From contig CAVQRT010000008.1 of the NCBI GenBank assembly GCA_963715195.1, positions 45,268 through 109,267 of the forward strand: 64,000 bases of DNA, in the 5' to 3' direction. Below are positions 37,495 to 63,984 of the stretch, in pieces; the first letter of the stretch is position 1, and every line of letters begins with the position of its first letter. Source of the stretch: Thermodesulfovibrionales bacterium (GTDB lineage Bacteria > Nitrospirota > Thermodesulfovibrionia > Thermodesulfovibrionales > SM23-35). The position numbers and the translations under genes were made by a program. The notes beneath the pieces are model-generated. The model was not told where the DNA came from. It saw nothing but the letters and a program-made list of their open reading frames with translations, and made no database searches.

Positions 37495-37669
37495 GAACCT
37501 ATCTCAAAATAGGTGTTCTGTGTTTTCTTGTCATTCCGGGCTTGACCCGGAATCCAGTGACTTTGCCTTTTTATTATATAAAAACAAAGAGTTATGAATT
37601 GCCAATTCAATATACTACAGTCGCTGGATACCGGCCTTCGCCGGTATGACTTAATTTTGAGATAGGTTC
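37495..37669. mobile_element. 175-bp MITE with 16-bp TIRs enclosing a GTCAT-repeat dimer (copy D)
   Basis: GAACCTATCTCAAAAT (37495-510) / ATTTTGAGATAGGTTC (37654-69); inner palindromes at 37529-57 and 37624-50. Confidence 0.75.
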
Positions 37670-37862
37670 AAGATAAAATTGACGGCAGATATTATATTTG
37701 TGAGGGTTTGAAGACTGGTGAATTCAGTAGGAAGAATCCTGGAGGCCTTCATAGCAGGTATTATATATACACACTACAAAAGAATCTTAACAATCACTAT
37801 TGCAGTAGAACAGTAAATTGCATAAAATATGATTATCAGATTTTAAGGAACAAGCAAGAACT

Positions 37863-38024
37863 CCCTGTGCTCTTGGCGCAGGGATGAATTGCTTCCTCAT
37901 CTGTGTCATTGCCCGACTTGATCGGGCAATCCAGAGAAAAGGAACTGGATTCTCCGGTCAAGCCGGAGAATGACAGTATTGAGTTTGACTTTTACGCCCT
38001 GCGCTCTTGGCGCAGGGTTCTTAA
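37863..38024 (+). mobile_element. PATE-like element enclosing a GTCAT-repeat dimer (copy E)
   Basis: Hairpins CCCTG(T/C)GCTCTTGGCGCAGGG at 37863-83 and 37997-38017, ending GTTCTTAA; inner dimer at 37904-34 / 37945-75. Confidence 0.65.
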
Positions 38025-38036
38025 CGGAGGTCAATA

Positions 38037-41757: not shown

Positions 41758-41787
41758 TGTCATCCTCCGGCTTGACCGGGGGATCCA
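41758..41787. repeat. GTCAT-tagged palindrome, solo (copy F)
   Basis: TGTCATCCTCCGGCTTGACCGGGGGATCCA; 29 bp identical to the copy at the GIY-YIG 3' end. Confidence 0.85.
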
Positions 41788-41964
41788 AAAAGCATTAGAG
41801 ACTCGATACCCGTCCGCGTTTCTTTGAATCTTCTCCACATATTCATATCTATAATATACTGATTTTTAGGCGTATTTATTACAAATATTAAACTTAAGAA
41901 TGAATGGCGGCTGGTAAGGGAAGATACCACAGAGTATGCAAAATTCATAGCCCCGCTATATCCA

Positions 41965-50703: not shown

Positions 50704-52274
50704 TCATCCTCGTCTTCGACGACCACCGGTTCTCACATCCGGATATTTGTCGATCAGATGCTGGTTCTCGGGTGTGTTTTTTACAAAAATATTTGCGACT
50801 TTATCGGAATATATGAGTTTCCAATCATTTCTTTTCGAGGAGAACATTCGAGAGCGGACCATTTTGTGTGAAATATAATCCAGTTCACATTGTATTTTTT
50901 CAGGACATCCTCCCATCCTGATTTTATCTGTGTAACCTTCAGGTATTCATTCCCGATTTTTTCACCGTACATATCTGACCGGCCATCGAAGAATACCTTA
51001 TATTCAGGCCAAGCAGCATAGATGATATAGTCGCCAAACTCATCATTATTGAACATATTGCCGGCTAGCTTTTCTTTTTGGAAAAACTCAACGGCATCAA
51101 CCGGCAATTTATTCCTTGTTAAATTCATAGGACAATTGGTCTGTAAATACCATGACAGAAATGAGTACGATCATCCCAGATTGCCCATACATGATACTTT
51201 GCTACTGAATCTGTTTTTGCTGTTCTGTCAGATATGGCGAGAATTCTCTTGATCAATCTTCGTTCTTTGAATTCATGCAGAAGGTTATCTATCTGTCTTC
51301 CCAGAATCGGACTCACGATGATCGCAAAGAGTGGTATATATCTGGCTGAATACAGGGACATGTGGGTAAAAAGCAAGACCAGAATTATCTCTATTGCATT
51401 CAGTCTGAGCACCGATACACCGAACACAAAGATCATGAGAAGAAGCATATATTCATATCGCAGATCGTCATGAAAATTGGGTGGGAGAAATTCATTTACA
51501 TGATTCATAAGAAATTTATTTGAGATTATCTTGAAAGGAAAGACGAGAATCTCATAACCTTTCGGGTTGAGTAGCGTAACCAAAATACAGAATGAAGGAG
51601 AATAGAACAGGGTTTTTATTTTCCAATTTTATCCTTCCGCTCCTCTTCTTTAAAGATTGCCATGATAGCATTACCTGTCGATATAAATTCCAAGGAGCAA
51701 GAAGCCGGCAATAAAGCCTCCGTGAAGGTTTACCCACAGGAGCATGAGGGGAGGGAGGAGATAAAGGTAGTTCTTTTGTCTTGTATTGATAGGTATCGAG
51801 AATGATATACCAGAGCAAGGTATAAGAAGAGCGAGAAGATATGCGGCCTTGCAAGCCAGTGAATAATCGATGCACTGGTGCCAAGCGCGACGATAAATGC
51901 GGCAACGATGATACTGATGCCCGATGCCTCAGGAATCTCAAAAGGATTGCATACACTGATGCGATTATCAGTGCCATGAACAACAACGAGACCGGTGAGT
52001 CCAGAGAGCTTTGTGAATGAGTGCGAAAATTACCTCAGAAAGCCATTCATGAGCTGTCCACTCAAGGGGAGGGGTGATGTGGGAAAAAAGATCATGGTGG
52101 GGGACTGTGAGGGTTGTCTATAATGTATTCACCTGCTCGGATATGATAGCCGGTATCAGCATCTCCGAGGAGATTCACTGGACCCCTCAGAATGAAGATA
52201 AGGATGATGATGAATATGACTTCTGCTATAGAGGGTAAAAACCAGAAGATTTTTGAGGATTTGTTGGGGGTCAT
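50704..52274 (-). CDS. Multi-pass GT-C-like membrane protein (multiple frameshifts)
   Basis: DADTGYHIRAGEYI, HEWL, LNPKG, FFDGRSDMYG. Confidence 0.65.
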
Positions 52275-52306
52275 GACAGGTTAATGGGGAAATATAGATG
52301 TGCCAA

Positions 52307-52519
52307 TTATGAGCTCCCTCTATTTTCCCATTTAAGGGTTTCTCTCTTTTTAAACTCCTTTATTGCCTGTTTGATATCTAATCGTTCTTTCTCCCCAAGA
52401 GGAGAAGCATCACTTTCAGCAATGGTTTTCCAGAAAATATTGATAAGATCCTTTTTCGGCAAAGTCTTCAGCATATTGACAACAACCTCTTCTGGCATTG
52501 ATAGTGTCTTTGCAGTCAT
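52307..52519 (-). CDS. Small antitoxin-like protein (no partner seen)
   Basis: 70 aa with a GGAG SD; C-terminal E..IKQA..EFKKRETLKW pattern. Confidence 0.45.
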   Translation of the reverse strand: MTAKTLSMPEEVVVNMLKTLPKKDLINIFWKTIAESDASPLGEKERLDIKQAIKEFKKRETLKWENRGSS

Positions 52520-52588
52520 TCTTAACTCCTATGAATGAAAATGATACCTTTAAATATTCATTAATAGTCCATCAATAAACTTATATGT

Positions 52589-52940
52589 CGTCATCCTCCG
52601 GCTTGACCGGGGGATCCAGCAATTAAATCATCGTATAAATCCTTCCAGTCTGGATTTGATTCTTCAATAAGCTTCAATTTCCATTGACGATTGTATTTTT
52701 TCAATCTTTTTTCTCTCTGAATAGCATCGTGTCCTGTTTGAAACTGTTCATAATAGACAAGCTTATTTATACTATATTTTTCTGTAAATCCTTGAACCAA
52801 TTTATTCTTATGTTCCCAAATGCGCTTAATTAAATCTGAAGTCACTCCAATATACAATGTGCCATTTCTTTCACTTGCCAATATGTAAACATAGAAAATC
52901 TTCATAAAACCTGGATTCCCCGATCAAGTCGGAGAATGAC
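52589..52940. mobile_element. Candidate autonomous element: GIY-YIG gene bracketed by inverted GTCAT palindromes (copy G)
   Basis: CGTCATCCTCCGGCTTGACCGGGGGATCCAG (52589-619) and CTGGATTCCCCGATCAAGTCGGAGAATGAC (52911-40) flank the ORF. Confidence 0.65.
52591..52905 (-). CDS. Small GIY-YIG nuclease
   Basis: FYVYILAS..TLYIGVT, RIWEH, AIQREKRLK, NPDWKDL. Confidence 0.92.
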   Translation of the reverse strand: MKIFYVYILASERNGTLYIGVTSDLIKRIWEHKNKLVQGFTEKYSINKLVYYEQFQTGHDAIQREKRLKKYNRQWKLKLIEESNPDWKDLYDDLIAGSPGQAGG

Positions 52941-53050
52941 CGAAACTAACTCGTGGATCTCAAAACTCTCCTTGGCTATCTCCTCTCCTCGGCGAGTCTT
53001 CCCCCGTCGAGGGGGAGGGGAAAATGGAGTTTCCCATATATAGTGCCTTT

Positions 53051-53075
53051 AAAAAAAAGCCCCTGAAAGGGGCTT
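53051..53075 (-). terminator. Rho-independent terminator after the tad operon
   Basis: Minus strand AAGCCCCT-TTC-AGGGGC-TTTTTTTT. Confidence 0.8.
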
Positions 53076-53134
53076 GAATTTGTTATTCATTTTATCCTGA
53101 AAAATAATTATTTGAATAAGAAAATGTATATGGA

Positions 53135-53212
53135 TTACCTCTTGAATTTCACATAGATTAACGCCAGTTCTATTGCGATAACTATCAGGAGAATAGTATT
53201 GATATCCACCAT
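53135..53212 (-). CDS. 25-aa single-TM microprotein, absent from the ORF track
   Basis: MVDINTILLIVIAIELALIYVKFKR; strong SD AAAGGGGGTG; between tadC and the terminator. Confidence 0.6.
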   Translation of the reverse strand: MVDINTILLIVIAIELALIYVKFKR

Positions 53213-53235
53213 TCAAACACCCCCTTTCAAAACTC

Positions 53236-54157
53236 TTACATCTCGGAAAAGAATCTCGATATCCTGATGACGCCGGGGCCGAGAATAACGATAAGGATAG
53301 CTGGGAAGATAAAAAACACCAGCGGGAATATGAGCTTGACAGCAGTCTTTGCAGCAGCCTCTTCTGCTTTCTGTCTTCGGATCGTCCGCAATGAGTCAGA
53401 AAAAATCCGCAACGATTGCGCGAGGCTTGTTCCGAGCTTTTCTGTCTGAACAAGCATGGCAGCGAAGGATTTCAAATCTTCGACCATGGTCCGCTCACCC
53501 ATATCCCGGAGGGCTTCAAGCCGTGGCTTACCCGCACGTGTTTCGTTCGTTGCTATCCGGATTTCAGTAGCAAGCGGACTCTTTTTGAACTGCTGATCTT
53601 CGCAGACTTTAATCATGGCGGCATCCATACTCATTCCGGCCTCAACACAAATGGTCATGAGGTCGAGCAAATCAGGAAGGTCATGAAATATCCTCGTCTG
53701 TCTTTTCTGTCAGCCTGTTTCTAAGCCAGTATGTTGGCAGGAGAAATCCTGCGATAGCAAGAGCCAATGGCACTAACAATTCTTATGGTAGAATCTTTTT
53801 CAACAGGTATGCCATAGAATATGAGGTAGAGTCAACGGCAGACAGAATTGTTAAAGTCAATTTTGACACCCATAAATATTGCAATTCGTATCTTGCTTTA
53901 TCCCTGCGGCAACGAGCATTTTCTGATACTTGCCGTAAGTCCTCGGGTCGCATAGGAACTTTTTTCCCAAGCCTTCCAAAGAATATTTGCCATTTGGTTG
54001 GTTGTTGCTCAAAAACGCTGACTGCTTCCACGCGAGGCTGTATGCTTTCAATTCTCTCCTGAACGATCGATTTCCTTGGGTATGCAACATAGATCAGGAA
54101 TAAAAGTAGTCCGGCTATTCCTACGAACAACAGTAAAGACAAACCAATTAATGTCAT
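53236..54157 (-). CDS. tadC: Tad inner-membrane platform protein TadC (frameshifts)
   Basis: LDLMTICVEAG, AEEAAAK..KLIFPLV..FP. Confidence 0.85.
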
Positions 54158-54188
54158 AGTTGCCTCTCTTTTGGCTTGTTGTTTATCA

Positions 54189-55165
54189 TCAAATCTTTAT
54201 ATCGATAATCCTTCTGATAATAAAAAACCCGATAATCTGAGCAATGACCGCAGCAGCTATCAGTATTCTGCCAAGCTTGGCCTCAATCAGTTCCCCGATA
54301 TAGTCAGGAGCCATAAAATAGAATATTAATGCAGTGACAATTGGAAGCGCTGCAAGGACATAGCCTGAAAGTCGCGCCTGAGCAGTATAGACCCTGACCT
54401 GACGTCTGATTTTTAATCCGTTCCCGTATTGTCTTTGCAAGGTTTTCAAGTATCTCTGATAAATTGCCGCCTATCTCGCGGTAAATATTGACGGCAGTTA
54501 CAAAGAAACCGCATATCCGGTGGTGTCCATTCGGTATATCATATTGGAAAGGGAATCTTTAATGCGAAAGTCCATAGGCCTGCTCTTCATAGACAGATTT
54601 AAAGAGACCTGATATCGGATCAGACATCTCATTCCCGACTACCTGAATGGCAGCTAGCGAGGGAATGACCTGCCTTCAGAGAGCGCGACATCATGTCGAG
54701 GGCATGTGACGAATTGTTCGGTAAACCGATTCATTCTCTTCGCTTTTTGAATTTTCAGATAGAAAAAGGGAATTGAGACCAACAAGGATCATGAGCAACA
54801 AATGGCAGGAATTATCCCTCTCTGCAAGAGACCGCACCAAGGAGAAAACCTAAGGCAGCAAAGACGAGCACGATAAGGAGAAAAACCTTCACATCAAGTT
54901 TCAGGCCTGCCTTATCGATCCATTCATGGAGTTTTCGTATGACTTTCACCTTGTAAATGATTTTATCGATAGGGCTCATCTCTTGCAGGATTTCGATCTG
55001 AGATCTGACAGGAATCCCTCCCCGGCTTCAAGCGCAAGGTTCCTCAGAGCGTTTCTTGAGTTCATAAGCAGGCGAAGTTTTTACGGCAGCATACCCAAGA
55101 TAGATGGTAATCAGAACGAGCAGGGCTGCTATAAAAAATAAGACTGCAATAATAAGTAACATCAT
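54189..55165 (-). CDS. tadB: Tad inner-membrane platform protein TadB (frameshifts)
   Basis: [21 protein letters not shown]-terminal IIDIKI. Confidence 0.8.
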
Positions 55166-56479
55166 GGCTGTGTCCTCTCAAATATATGTGGCGGAACCTC
55201 AAAGCCAGAGACTTTGAGCTTTTCCATAAACCACGGCCTGACGCCGGTTGGCTGAAATTCTCCGAGAACCCTGTCCGTCCGGTCCTATGCCCTGTCTTCT
55301 CGAATTTGAAAGATGTCCTGCATGACAATGGTTTGCCCTTCCATGCCGGTTATCTCTGAAATCTGAACGATTTTTCTTGTGCCATCGGACATGCGCGACA
55401 GATGAACCACGACATTGATAGGCAGATGCGATCTGTTCCCTGATCGCCCGTTCAGGGAGATCCATGCCAGCCATTAATACCATGGTCTCAAGCCTTGAAA
55501 GGGCATCCCGTGCAGTGTTCGAGTGGACTGTGGAAAGAGAGCCATCGTGGCCGGTATTCATGGCCTGGAGCATATCAAGCGCTTCACCGCCCCTGACCTC
55601 ACCGACGATTATGCGGTCGGGCCTCATCCTCAGGGTGTTTCTGACGAGATCTCTCTGCGTAACTTCACCTTTCCCTTCAATATTCGGTGGCCGTGTCTCG
55701 AGTCTCACCACATGCTCCTGCTTCATCTGAAGTTCCGCAGAGTCCTCGATCGTCACAATTCTCTCGGTGTTAGGAATGAACTCTGAAAGGATGTTTAAAA
55801 GGGTCGTTTTGCCGGTACCGGTACCGCCGGATATGAGGATATTCAAGTCTTGATTTTTCACGCATCCTTCGAGGACTTTGGCCATATTTTGCGTGATAGA
55901 CCCGAATGCTATAAGGTCGGACATTTTCAGAGGGTCAACTCCGAACCGCCTGATGGAGAGCACCGGTCCATCAAGAGCAAGCGGAGGTATGATCGCATTT
56001 ACTCTTGATCCATCGGGAAGCCTCGCATCAACATACGGAGATGACTCATCAACCCTTCGCCCGATCTTGGAGACTATTCTGTCTATTATCTGGAGGAGGT
56101 GGTTATCGTCACGGAAAGAAAGGTCTACCTTGCTGAGCTTGCCAAGTTTTTCAACATAAATCTGATTATATCTGTTAACCAGGATATCAGAGATGTCAGG
56201 ATCATACAGAAGGGGCTCTATGGGGCCGAGACCGAATGTTTCATGAAGGATATCGACAACGAGGCTATCTTTTTCCTTGGAGCTCAGGGGAATCTTTTCA
56301 TCTTCGATAAGGTTTTCAACGATACGGCTGATTTCCCTGCTTAGAATGTCTTTCTCGATCAGGTCAAAACTGGTGAAATCGAGCCGTTCTATCAGCTTCC
56401 GGTGTATTTTTGCCTTTAGACTATGGAATTGCTCGAATTTCCCGGCCTTTGTCAGGTCTGACGGGTTTTCTATGGCCAT
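55162..56479 (-). CDS. tadA: Tad assembly ATPase CpaF/TadA (frameshift near 55420)
   Basis: [41 protein letters not shown]. Confidence 0.93.
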
Positions 56480-56495
56480 ATGATTAATCCCTCCC

Positions 56496-57629
56496 TCATT
56501 GATTGCTCGCAATTATGGATTTTGCCAAATCCTTCATGGATAAATTCAATTGAGACCTCGGAGCTCCTTCACTGATTGGCACCCCCTTATTCAGGCATGT
56601 CATTGTTGTATCGTAATCATTGGGAAGTGTATAGAATATGGGATAGTTGAGGGCTTTTTCCGTATCCTGAATAGTAATGTCACTTTTCTTGAGGTATCTG
56701 TTCGCGATGAGCTTAACCCTGTCTTTGCCGAGGCCAATTTGATCAAAATATCTCAGGTGTCTCTGCATGTTCTTTATGCTGGGAAGGCTCATGAAGAATA
56801 CCAGCAGTATCATGTCTGCCATCTCGATTGCTGTCGTTGTCCTCTCTGAAATAGTTTCTGCATCGATGATGATATATTTGAACATAGATTTGAGAAGGCT
56901 CAGCACCTTTTTGATTTCACTGCTCGAAATGGACACGCCTTCCTCGATTTTTTGAGGTTCGGCAAGCACCGAAATGCCTGATTCATGCTTTGCAATGACA
57001 CCCTGGAGAAAGTTTCTGTCGAGCCTGCTGATATTCATCGTAACGTCGCTTATTGTATATGATGGTTTCATGTTGAGAAAGGTTGTTACATCACCTGCAT
57101 TCAGATCAAGGTCGACAAGGACTGTCGATTTATCCGTCATATCGTGAATATTTGTTGCGAGATTGATTGCGATTGTTGTTACACCAGCGCCTCCCTTTGG
57201 GCTGAAGACCGTGATAATCCTGCCGGCTTCCTCTTCTGATGGTTTGACGAGCCAGAGCCTTCCGAGTTTCTGGAGTGCAAAGGTAAGGTCGGTATTCGAA
57301 ACAGGTCTCAGGAGATATTCTGTCGCACCTGCACGCATGACCTTGAGAATGGTATCGGATGATTTATCAGTGGCAGTGGCAAAGATGGAAACTTGAGGGA
57401 AGCGGCTTGATAGCTGACCGATTCTTTCAATAGCAAGATTGACGTCATCGCCAACCTCCATGATAACGACCATAGGGCGCTTCTTGTGGACAAGTTCATA
57501 TCCCTTTTCAAAGGTTGTGGCTGTACCGTCAACAACTACAGTATCTCCGATGTTTTCGATGTACTTCACCAGATTCTTGACGGATTCGAAGTCAGTGTCG
57601 ATGATTACGACTGAGATGTTCTGTGGCAT
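56496..57629 (-). CDS. cpaE: CpaE/TadZ (receiver-like + ParA/MinD ATPase)
   Basis: [24 protein letters not shown]. Confidence 0.88.
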
Positions 57630-57688: not shown

Positions 57689-57719
57689 TGTCATTCCACG
57701 ACTTGATCGGGGAAACCAG
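57689..57719. repeat. GTCAT-tagged palindrome, solo (copy H)
   Basis: TGTCATTCCACGACTTGATCGGGGAAACCAG. Confidence 0.75.
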
Positions 57720-61049: not shown

Positions 61050-61135
61050 TGTCATTGCCCGACTTGATCGGGCAATCCAGAATCGAAAGCTTTTGTGAAA
61101 TACACTGGATTATCCGGTCGAGCCGGATAATGACA
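61050..61135. repeat. GTCAT-tagged palindrome dimer (copy I)
   Basis: TGTCATTGCCCGACTTGATCGGGCAATCCAG, 24-bp spacer, CTGGATTATCCGGTCGAGCCGGATAATGACA. Confidence 0.88.
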
Positions 61136-63916: not shown

Positions 63917-63984
63917 CGTCATTCCACGACTTGATCGGGGAATCCAGAAGGGGCTGGATTGTCCGGTCGAGCCGGACAATGACA
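63917..63984. repeat. GTCAT-tagged palindrome dimer (copy J)
   Basis: CGTCATTCCACGACTTGATCGGGGAATCCAG, 6-bp spacer, CTGGATTGTCCGGTCGAGCCGGACAATGACA. Confidence 0.88.

Follow-up and report, generated by a model that had tools for sequence, protein, structure and literature searches.

The closest described system is that of the N. meningitidis protein SsnA (Chenal et al. 2025, PMC11893778). This GIY-YIG nuclease of 94 aa binds the NTS hairpin when it is single-stranded, not otherwise, and its cut falls a few bases upstream of the hairpin; three homologs behave in the same way. Cutting is strand-specific and confined to ssDNA in the four Ssn homologs for which it is known, RNA and dsDNA being left uncut; SRMs stand on both sides of 42% of Ssn homologs, and SsnA has an in vivo role in N. 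meningitidis transformation (PMC11893778). The NTS-ssnA-NTS layout was called identical to insertion sequences and likened to REP/RAYT in the discussion of that paper, the main text of which shows no genomic mobility (no empty sites, target sites or MITEs; PMC11893778). No later work on Ssn mobility was found in a literature search made largely outside subscription journals; the identifier of the Ssn CDD family, cd10448, appeared in the literature searched in PMC11893778 alone.

CGTC REPs were described by Di Nocera et al. (2013, PMC3733652) as mostly tag-out (HH) heterodimers; no dedicated or CGTC-flanked transposase was found there, and the available text of that paper draws no link between these REPs and GIY-YIG genes. 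What spreads the CGTC/NTS repeats has been a question since 2013 (PMC3733652) and was raised as a hypothesis in 2025 (PMC11893778). Self-mobilisation by Ssn has already been hypothesised in print; its proof would be new.

The ssn gene and its hairpins in the window

The window (the whole stretch of DNA analysed, 64,000 nucleotides of a Thermodesulfovibrionales genome) holds at 52591-52905, minus strand, an ssn gene for a single-domain GIY-YIG nuclease of 104 aa (Y7, Y18, R28, E65), placed between two GTCAT hairpins with tags outward, as the earlier note had it; GIY-YIG is the sole Pfam family in the protein (E = 9.8e-14). The downstream hairpin (52589-52619, plus strand) matches the published SRM pattern exactly and, as claimed, encodes the last eight codons (GSPGQAGG) and the TGA stop. 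The upstream SRM/CGTC-type hairpin (52911-52940, minus strand; GTCAT tag, 9-bp stem, 5-nt loop, CCAG tail) departs from that pattern at the first, flanking base only (G for H); an SRM is accordingly present within 500 bp in both flanks, the 5' unit differing at this one base. The gene had been said to begin 5 bp inside the upstream palindrome; there is no overlap, the ATG starting 5 bp past the end of the unit. In 27 of 76 homolog loci the stop codon lies inside the downstream hairpin or past it, so that overlap at that side is common and nothing special at the window locus.

Alignment of the window protein with a 94-aa N. gonorrhoeae protein encoded among NTS copies was ungapped (60% over 90 aa, pairwise E = 3e-41) and set the SsnA catalytic residues Y6, Y17 and E64 against Y7, Y18 and E65; of 120 homologs, 120, 120 and 119 retain these residues, respectively. 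Membership of Ssn is defined in PMC11893778 by BLASTP to Neisseria SsnA (E < 1e-10 over at least 75%); with the N. gonorrhoeae counterpart, the match of the window protein covers 90 of 94 aa at the E value given, and its 104 aa fall within the limit for a single-domain GIY-YIG protein (<150 aa). Homologs occur in Chitinilyticum aquatile (66%) and Azospirillum lipoferum 4B (56%), both among the 29 SRM-defining genomes of PMC11893778. PDB gave no sequence match to the window protein at E ≤ 0.001, and NCBIfam no family above cut-off. Judged by its sequence, the window gene is a member of the Ssn family; the source genome has one intact ssn copy and a shortened one (on contig C10). The view that small stand-alone GIY-YIG proteins lack a known function has been overtaken, the family having been characterised as Ssn, and the idea of a new element analogous to a REPtron was anticipated by the IS and REP-RAYT comparison of the same paper (PMC11893778). 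That the nuclease acts at the hairpins agrees with the cutting of ssDNA beside such hairpins by family members (PMC11893778), by analogy with which the window protein very probably binds its own hairpin on single strands, with a cut immediately 5' of the tag.

Compared with Ssn/NTS as described in PMC11893778, the window has the same elements: a single-domain GIY-YIG protein of ~100 aa, the same catalytic residues, GTCAT-tagged hairpins on both sides. It differs in the hairpin (9-bp stem, 5-nt loop, 30 nt versus the 28-nt NTS), in the placement of the gene, which fills the spacer of one tag-out dimer whereas that of N. gonorrhoeae lies between tag-in ends, and in the hairpin-encoded C-terminus. 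The locus is one more Ssn/SRM pair; its 9-bp-stem target could be a further specificity for the set of ssDNA-nuclease tools.

The intact reading frame, in a region rich in frameshifts, had been offered as evidence. Compared with congener orthologs, the neighbouring genes carry about 5 frame switches over about 6.9 kb, at which rate a 315-bp frame would stay intact ~80% of the time by chance; intactness is therefore uninformative. These neighbours (50731-57629) are tad/Flp pilus-like genes (T2SSF, T2SSE, CpaE-like) and a membrane-protein gene, and the switches, absent in congeners, are probably assembly errors.

Gene-less tag-out dimers of the same orientation lie at 37905-37974, 61051-61134 and 63918-63983 (spacers of 10, 24 and 6 bp), as reported earlier, and a solo unit at 41759-41788 (plus strand) is identical over 29 bp to the ssn downstream hairpin, again as reported; a further tag-out dimer of shorter-stem units (37530-37650) and a slightly degenerate solo unit (57690-57719, plus strand) had been missed. 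The window tag is (C/T/G)GTCAT, and the repeats have the traits of CGTC REPs: a CGTC/TGTC tag, an 8-9-bp stem starting from AT, a 4-5-nt loop, a CCA tail and HH dimers; the 5-nt loop, too, is a likeness to the units of PMC3733652. The repeats are commoner than chance predicts: the published SRM pattern had 47 matches in the source genome, where 10 Markov simulations averaged 12.6, and an exact 29-nt pattern had 42, its reversed control 0; a relaxed search of the 2.8-Mb assembly gave 84 units of three stem types. Contigs C1/C13, C3/C4/C5 and C10/C14 are duplicated at 87-96% identity and contamination is 6.6%, so that some of these counts are inflated by a strain or species mixture. Among the duplicated contigs no filled/empty dimer pairs were seen by eye.

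The dimer at 37905-37974 lies inside a longer repeat, its likeness to C31:334968 running 51-63 bp past both tags. This ~185-bp repeat (98% identical pair) encloses dimers at window 37842-38025, C31:334905-335088, C3:110769 and C30:270208 and has CCCTGCGCTCTTGGCGCAGGG hairpin ends, which recall ends of the IS200/IS605 type. Another small element, with GAGRCTGTGTCGYAAT-like inverted ends and its own hairpin dimer, sits in the loop of another unit at C3:302550-302690 and C10:26380-26480; at the latter place the invaded unit is the one upstream of the shortened ssn copy.

Association with repeats and mobility of the module

The best 80 genome loci of homologs were taken, 72 of them with enough flank for a unit scan. 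A sense unit stood upstream in 57/72, an antisense unit downstream in 57/72 and both (tag-out) in 48/72; control windows 1.2-1.5 kb away held units in 0/61 and 1/61 loci. In this flank check, proposed by the earlier note, the nuclease does go with the hairpins. Units of the opposite orientation (19 upstream, 26 downstream) are expected, since dimers flank some of the genes. The nearest repeats of the N. gonorrhoeae ssn homolog face tag-in, and the tag-out layout is therefore not universal. On a quick protein tree (88 columns; 51/81 branches open) hairpin length clustered, with 3 changes versus 8.7 when shuffled (0/500 shuffles as low), and the window gene grouped with three genes of its 9-bp-stem type (a four-member group of weak support, 87).

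Three congeners were compared at the window locus. The module is missing from G001 and G002, whose orthologous regions are 68-76% identical; in G003 no match to the region was obtained. The insert at 52275-53047 takes up 773 bp in the window versus 5 bp in G001, and G002 has about 300 unrelated bases at the site. As to the empty sites that the earlier note proposed to look for, two congeners lack the module, but the missing stretch in G001 is 773 bp, with no clean junction found. The insert contains the cassette, another hairpin and a 70-aa ORF (52307-52519, minus strand), and may represent several events at this divergence. The ORF has no Pfam family and a weak addiction-module-antitoxin lead; its nearest Atlas clusters are Nitrospirota hypotheticals, and no toxin partner was seen. 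A hairpin of a different type (CCCCC..GGGGG) lies upstream of the cassette at 52980-53025; in G002 (L139:3100-3600) similar hairpins bracket a small frameshifted gene, DUF559/Vsr-like by eye.

Pairwise comparison of 70 cassettes gave 36 pairs with end-to-end alignments of at least 80% identity. In many pairs identity reaches 90-95%, third codon positions standing at 79-92%; in 18 of 24 pairs checked (hand-picked, pairs below 80% included) the flanks have no protein-level similarity. In A. lipoferum a dimer-gene-dimer array stands between sufB and sufC, and four congeners (91-97% identical) are without the cassette; the junction is a replacement rather than a clean insertion, and neither at this site nor at the window locus was a clean empty-site junction found. 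On a Sphingomonas plasmid, the sufB-sufC interval holds a DUF559 gene. From the absence in congeners and the near-identical cassettes at unrelated loci it follows that the module moves; judged by these genome comparisons it is clearly mobile between genomes, as the earlier note had supposed. This genomic evidence goes a little beyond that in the main text of PMC11893778 and comes mostly from relatives, not from the window locus; the nuclease is a candidate for a role of its own in the movement.

The reading preferred here (probability about 0.6) is that the Ssn gene between SRM hairpins is a selfish module gained at this locus, the protein of which likely cuts ssDNA a few bases 5' of GTCAT. 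Ssn would, on the family data, bind the hairpin in ssDNA and cut a few bases 5' of the tag; with the tags outward, two cut sites would result, both just outside the cassette and on opposite strands. Nicking, at replication forks or of incoming DNA, might then open the cassette ends, and host repair could spread and maintain the hairpin dimers without target duplications. In several lineages, the ssn gene would owe its long jumps to IS-ended mini-elements that carry it and are likely mobilised in trans by DDE transposases.

GIY-YIG enzymes hydrolyse DNA and form no phosphotyrosine link; strand transfer as by RAYT is therefore unlikely. With a REPtron the locus shares a small nuclease gene flanked by the hairpins that belong to it, an abundance of dimers without a gene, the lack of target duplication at the tags and, if the window protein behaves as its family does, the ssDNA substrate; it differs in having neither an HUH/Y1 fold (Pfam GIY-YIG only) nor a GTAG tag. 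It is REPtron-like in layout and substrate, yet no REPtron.

The unit that moves

The alternative that survives best is that the bare ~354-bp cassette is autonomous, Ssn alone excising or copying cassette and dimers by nicking outside the tags and the host sealing the ends, in line with the model of the earlier note; this is unlikely, for the following balance of evidence. The tight tag-out spacing speaks for it (nearest upstream tag 31-53 bp from the start in 40 of 62 loci), as do 90-95% identical cassettes with similarity ending at the tags (L071/L084, 0 and 0 bp; L003/L067, 0 and 8 bp); in other pairs similarity runs 9-141 bp past the tags, and selection on gene and hairpins would equally end it there. 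Most dimer-dimer similarities within the source genome likewise reach no more than a few bases from the tags. Where a near-full-length ssn match is present, genomes are richer in repeats (median of 18 units in 19 genomes versus 2 in the other 22, by hand tally of 41 genomes in which two repeat patterns, not the classic NTS type, were counted and kin are not independent). The expected relation of gene presence to repeat number stands in these medians and fails in G023 (180 window-type units), G013 (51) and G016 (25), draft genomes of relatives, 98-100% complete, in which protein and Pfam searches gave no ssn-type gene. Repeat-rich genomes lacking the gene had been named in the earlier note as a refuting outcome; gene loss after expansion or assembly failure could explain these three. 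Against autonomy stand also the single intact and single shortened copy in the source genome, the 773-bp length of the insert, and the finding that every closely examined multi-copy case within a genome (G020, G038) is a larger TIR/TSD unit. The 352-bp autonomous element of the earlier note is unproven or contradicted: the stretch missing from G001 is 773 bp, and the clearest recent jumps are of such larger units.

Target duplication at the tags was sought in 31 dimers (mean longest repeat 2.2 versus 2.5 in swapped controls) and 71 cassettes (2.1 versus 1.9), with no excess. An automated test found TIR plus TSD in 5 of 70 cassettes, the signal being absent in the other 65, versus 0 of 1500 swapped pairs. 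G020 has four 98-100% identical copies of a ~525-bp element with intact ssn cassettes (L031, L032, L034, L005); it extends ~137 bp upstream and ~23 bp downstream past the tags and has inverted-repeat ends, the three copies with both ends showing duplications of 12, 10 and 9 bp. In G038 (L183, L193, L203, L211, L154, L173) related ends and partly decayed 8-11-bp duplications accompany decayed ssn copies. As a group, the mini-elements of these two genomes measure 170-750 bp, with CAGGAGTTCCCCCA-type ends and 8-12-bp target duplications; the end sequence recurs about 108 bp inside them, which points to a small MITE that captured an ssn cassette. Other carriers have different ends: L004 (15-bp duplication), L008 and L112, and by eye L128 and L097. 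In genomes of the Desulfobacterota type, the flanks of L128, L112, L097 and L127 show a second kind of carrier whose inverted ends are GGGCATAAGCGCTAA-like; a different, CCCTC..GAGGG hairpin is its insertion site at L128 and L112.

Inverted ends with 9-15-bp target duplications are typical of DDE transposition. No transposase gene lies inside the carriers; a pattern search and 20 G038 stretches yielded no helper transposase with carrier-matching ends, the G020/G038 end pattern having exact matches in G038 and G020 only and one-mismatch counts no higher than in the control. A Mutator/IS256-family gene lies beside one copy, but the two have no ends in common. The carriers resemble MITEs or passenger-carrying IS derivatives (MIC/tIS type): the relatives' cassettes lie between TIRs with 9-15-bp target duplications and no transposase, whereas the window copy (L001) has one loosely conserved candidate end and, within 350 bp, neither a TIR pair nor a duplication. 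The candidate end is the outer flank of the downstream hairpin (52562-52588, plus strand; TAGT..TAAACT.., by eye and with no statistic), loosely common to about 7 other same-subfamily units in the genome; a small element on C13, bounded by TIRs, also has, by eye, one end resembling the ~27 bp outside the tag, and this flank is possibly a decayed carrier end. In several lineages the moved unit is larger than the cassette, with IS-like inverted repeats and 9-15-bp TSDs at its ends.

A tentative proposal, with the odds against it, is that CGTC REPs have in Ssn the mobiliser they have long lacked, a hydrolytic ssDNA nuclease of 100 aa that copies its tag-out cassette of ~354 bp and the gene-less dimers with host repair alone; the IS-ended carriers would then be secondary captures. 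If true, it would place Ssn among the smallest autonomous elements, moving by a route without DDE, HUH or recombinase chemistry. The near-identical cassettes and the TIR/TSD-bounded copies are concrete substrates for deciding between self-mobilisation and hitch-hiking.

Host function, Y1 genes and chance

Improbable, and more so than an autonomous cassette, is a host-serving Ssn without any share in the spread of the repeats, a modulator of ssDNA restriction or recombination that travels as cargo while MITEs or other transposases spread the hairpins. Its in vivo role in N. meningitidis (PMC11893778) would fit, as would the presence of dimers and cassettes inside several unrelated TIR-bounded carriers; Y1 transposase genes were present in 5/5 genomes searched, with a dimer within the 1.5-kb flanks at 3 of 15 loci. 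The other 12 Y1 loci have no unit nearby, and the one Y1 gene of the source genome (on C20) has no hairpin unit at its locus; the text of Di Nocera et al. reports no CGTC-flanked transposase (PMC3733652), and the tight bracketing of each gene by its own target type across phyla is left unexplained by a host-serving role. Coincidental insertion of hairpins on either side of an ordinary repair-type GIY-YIG gene, which the abundance of units in intergenic DNA of the source genome (84 in the relaxed search) might suggest, is refuted by the flank controls (0/61 and 1/61), by both-side flanking in 0/7 of the weak GIY-YIG hits in relatives and by the absence of the gene at the orthologous site, and is given next to no weight.

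Just outside the tags, the outer hairpin arm and ~10 flank bases are repeated in tandem, like a stutter (18-23-bp units, up to three), in the flanks of L084, L080, L011, L098, L003 and L010 and in the G038 elements; nicking or slippage at the tag end could have left this footprint.
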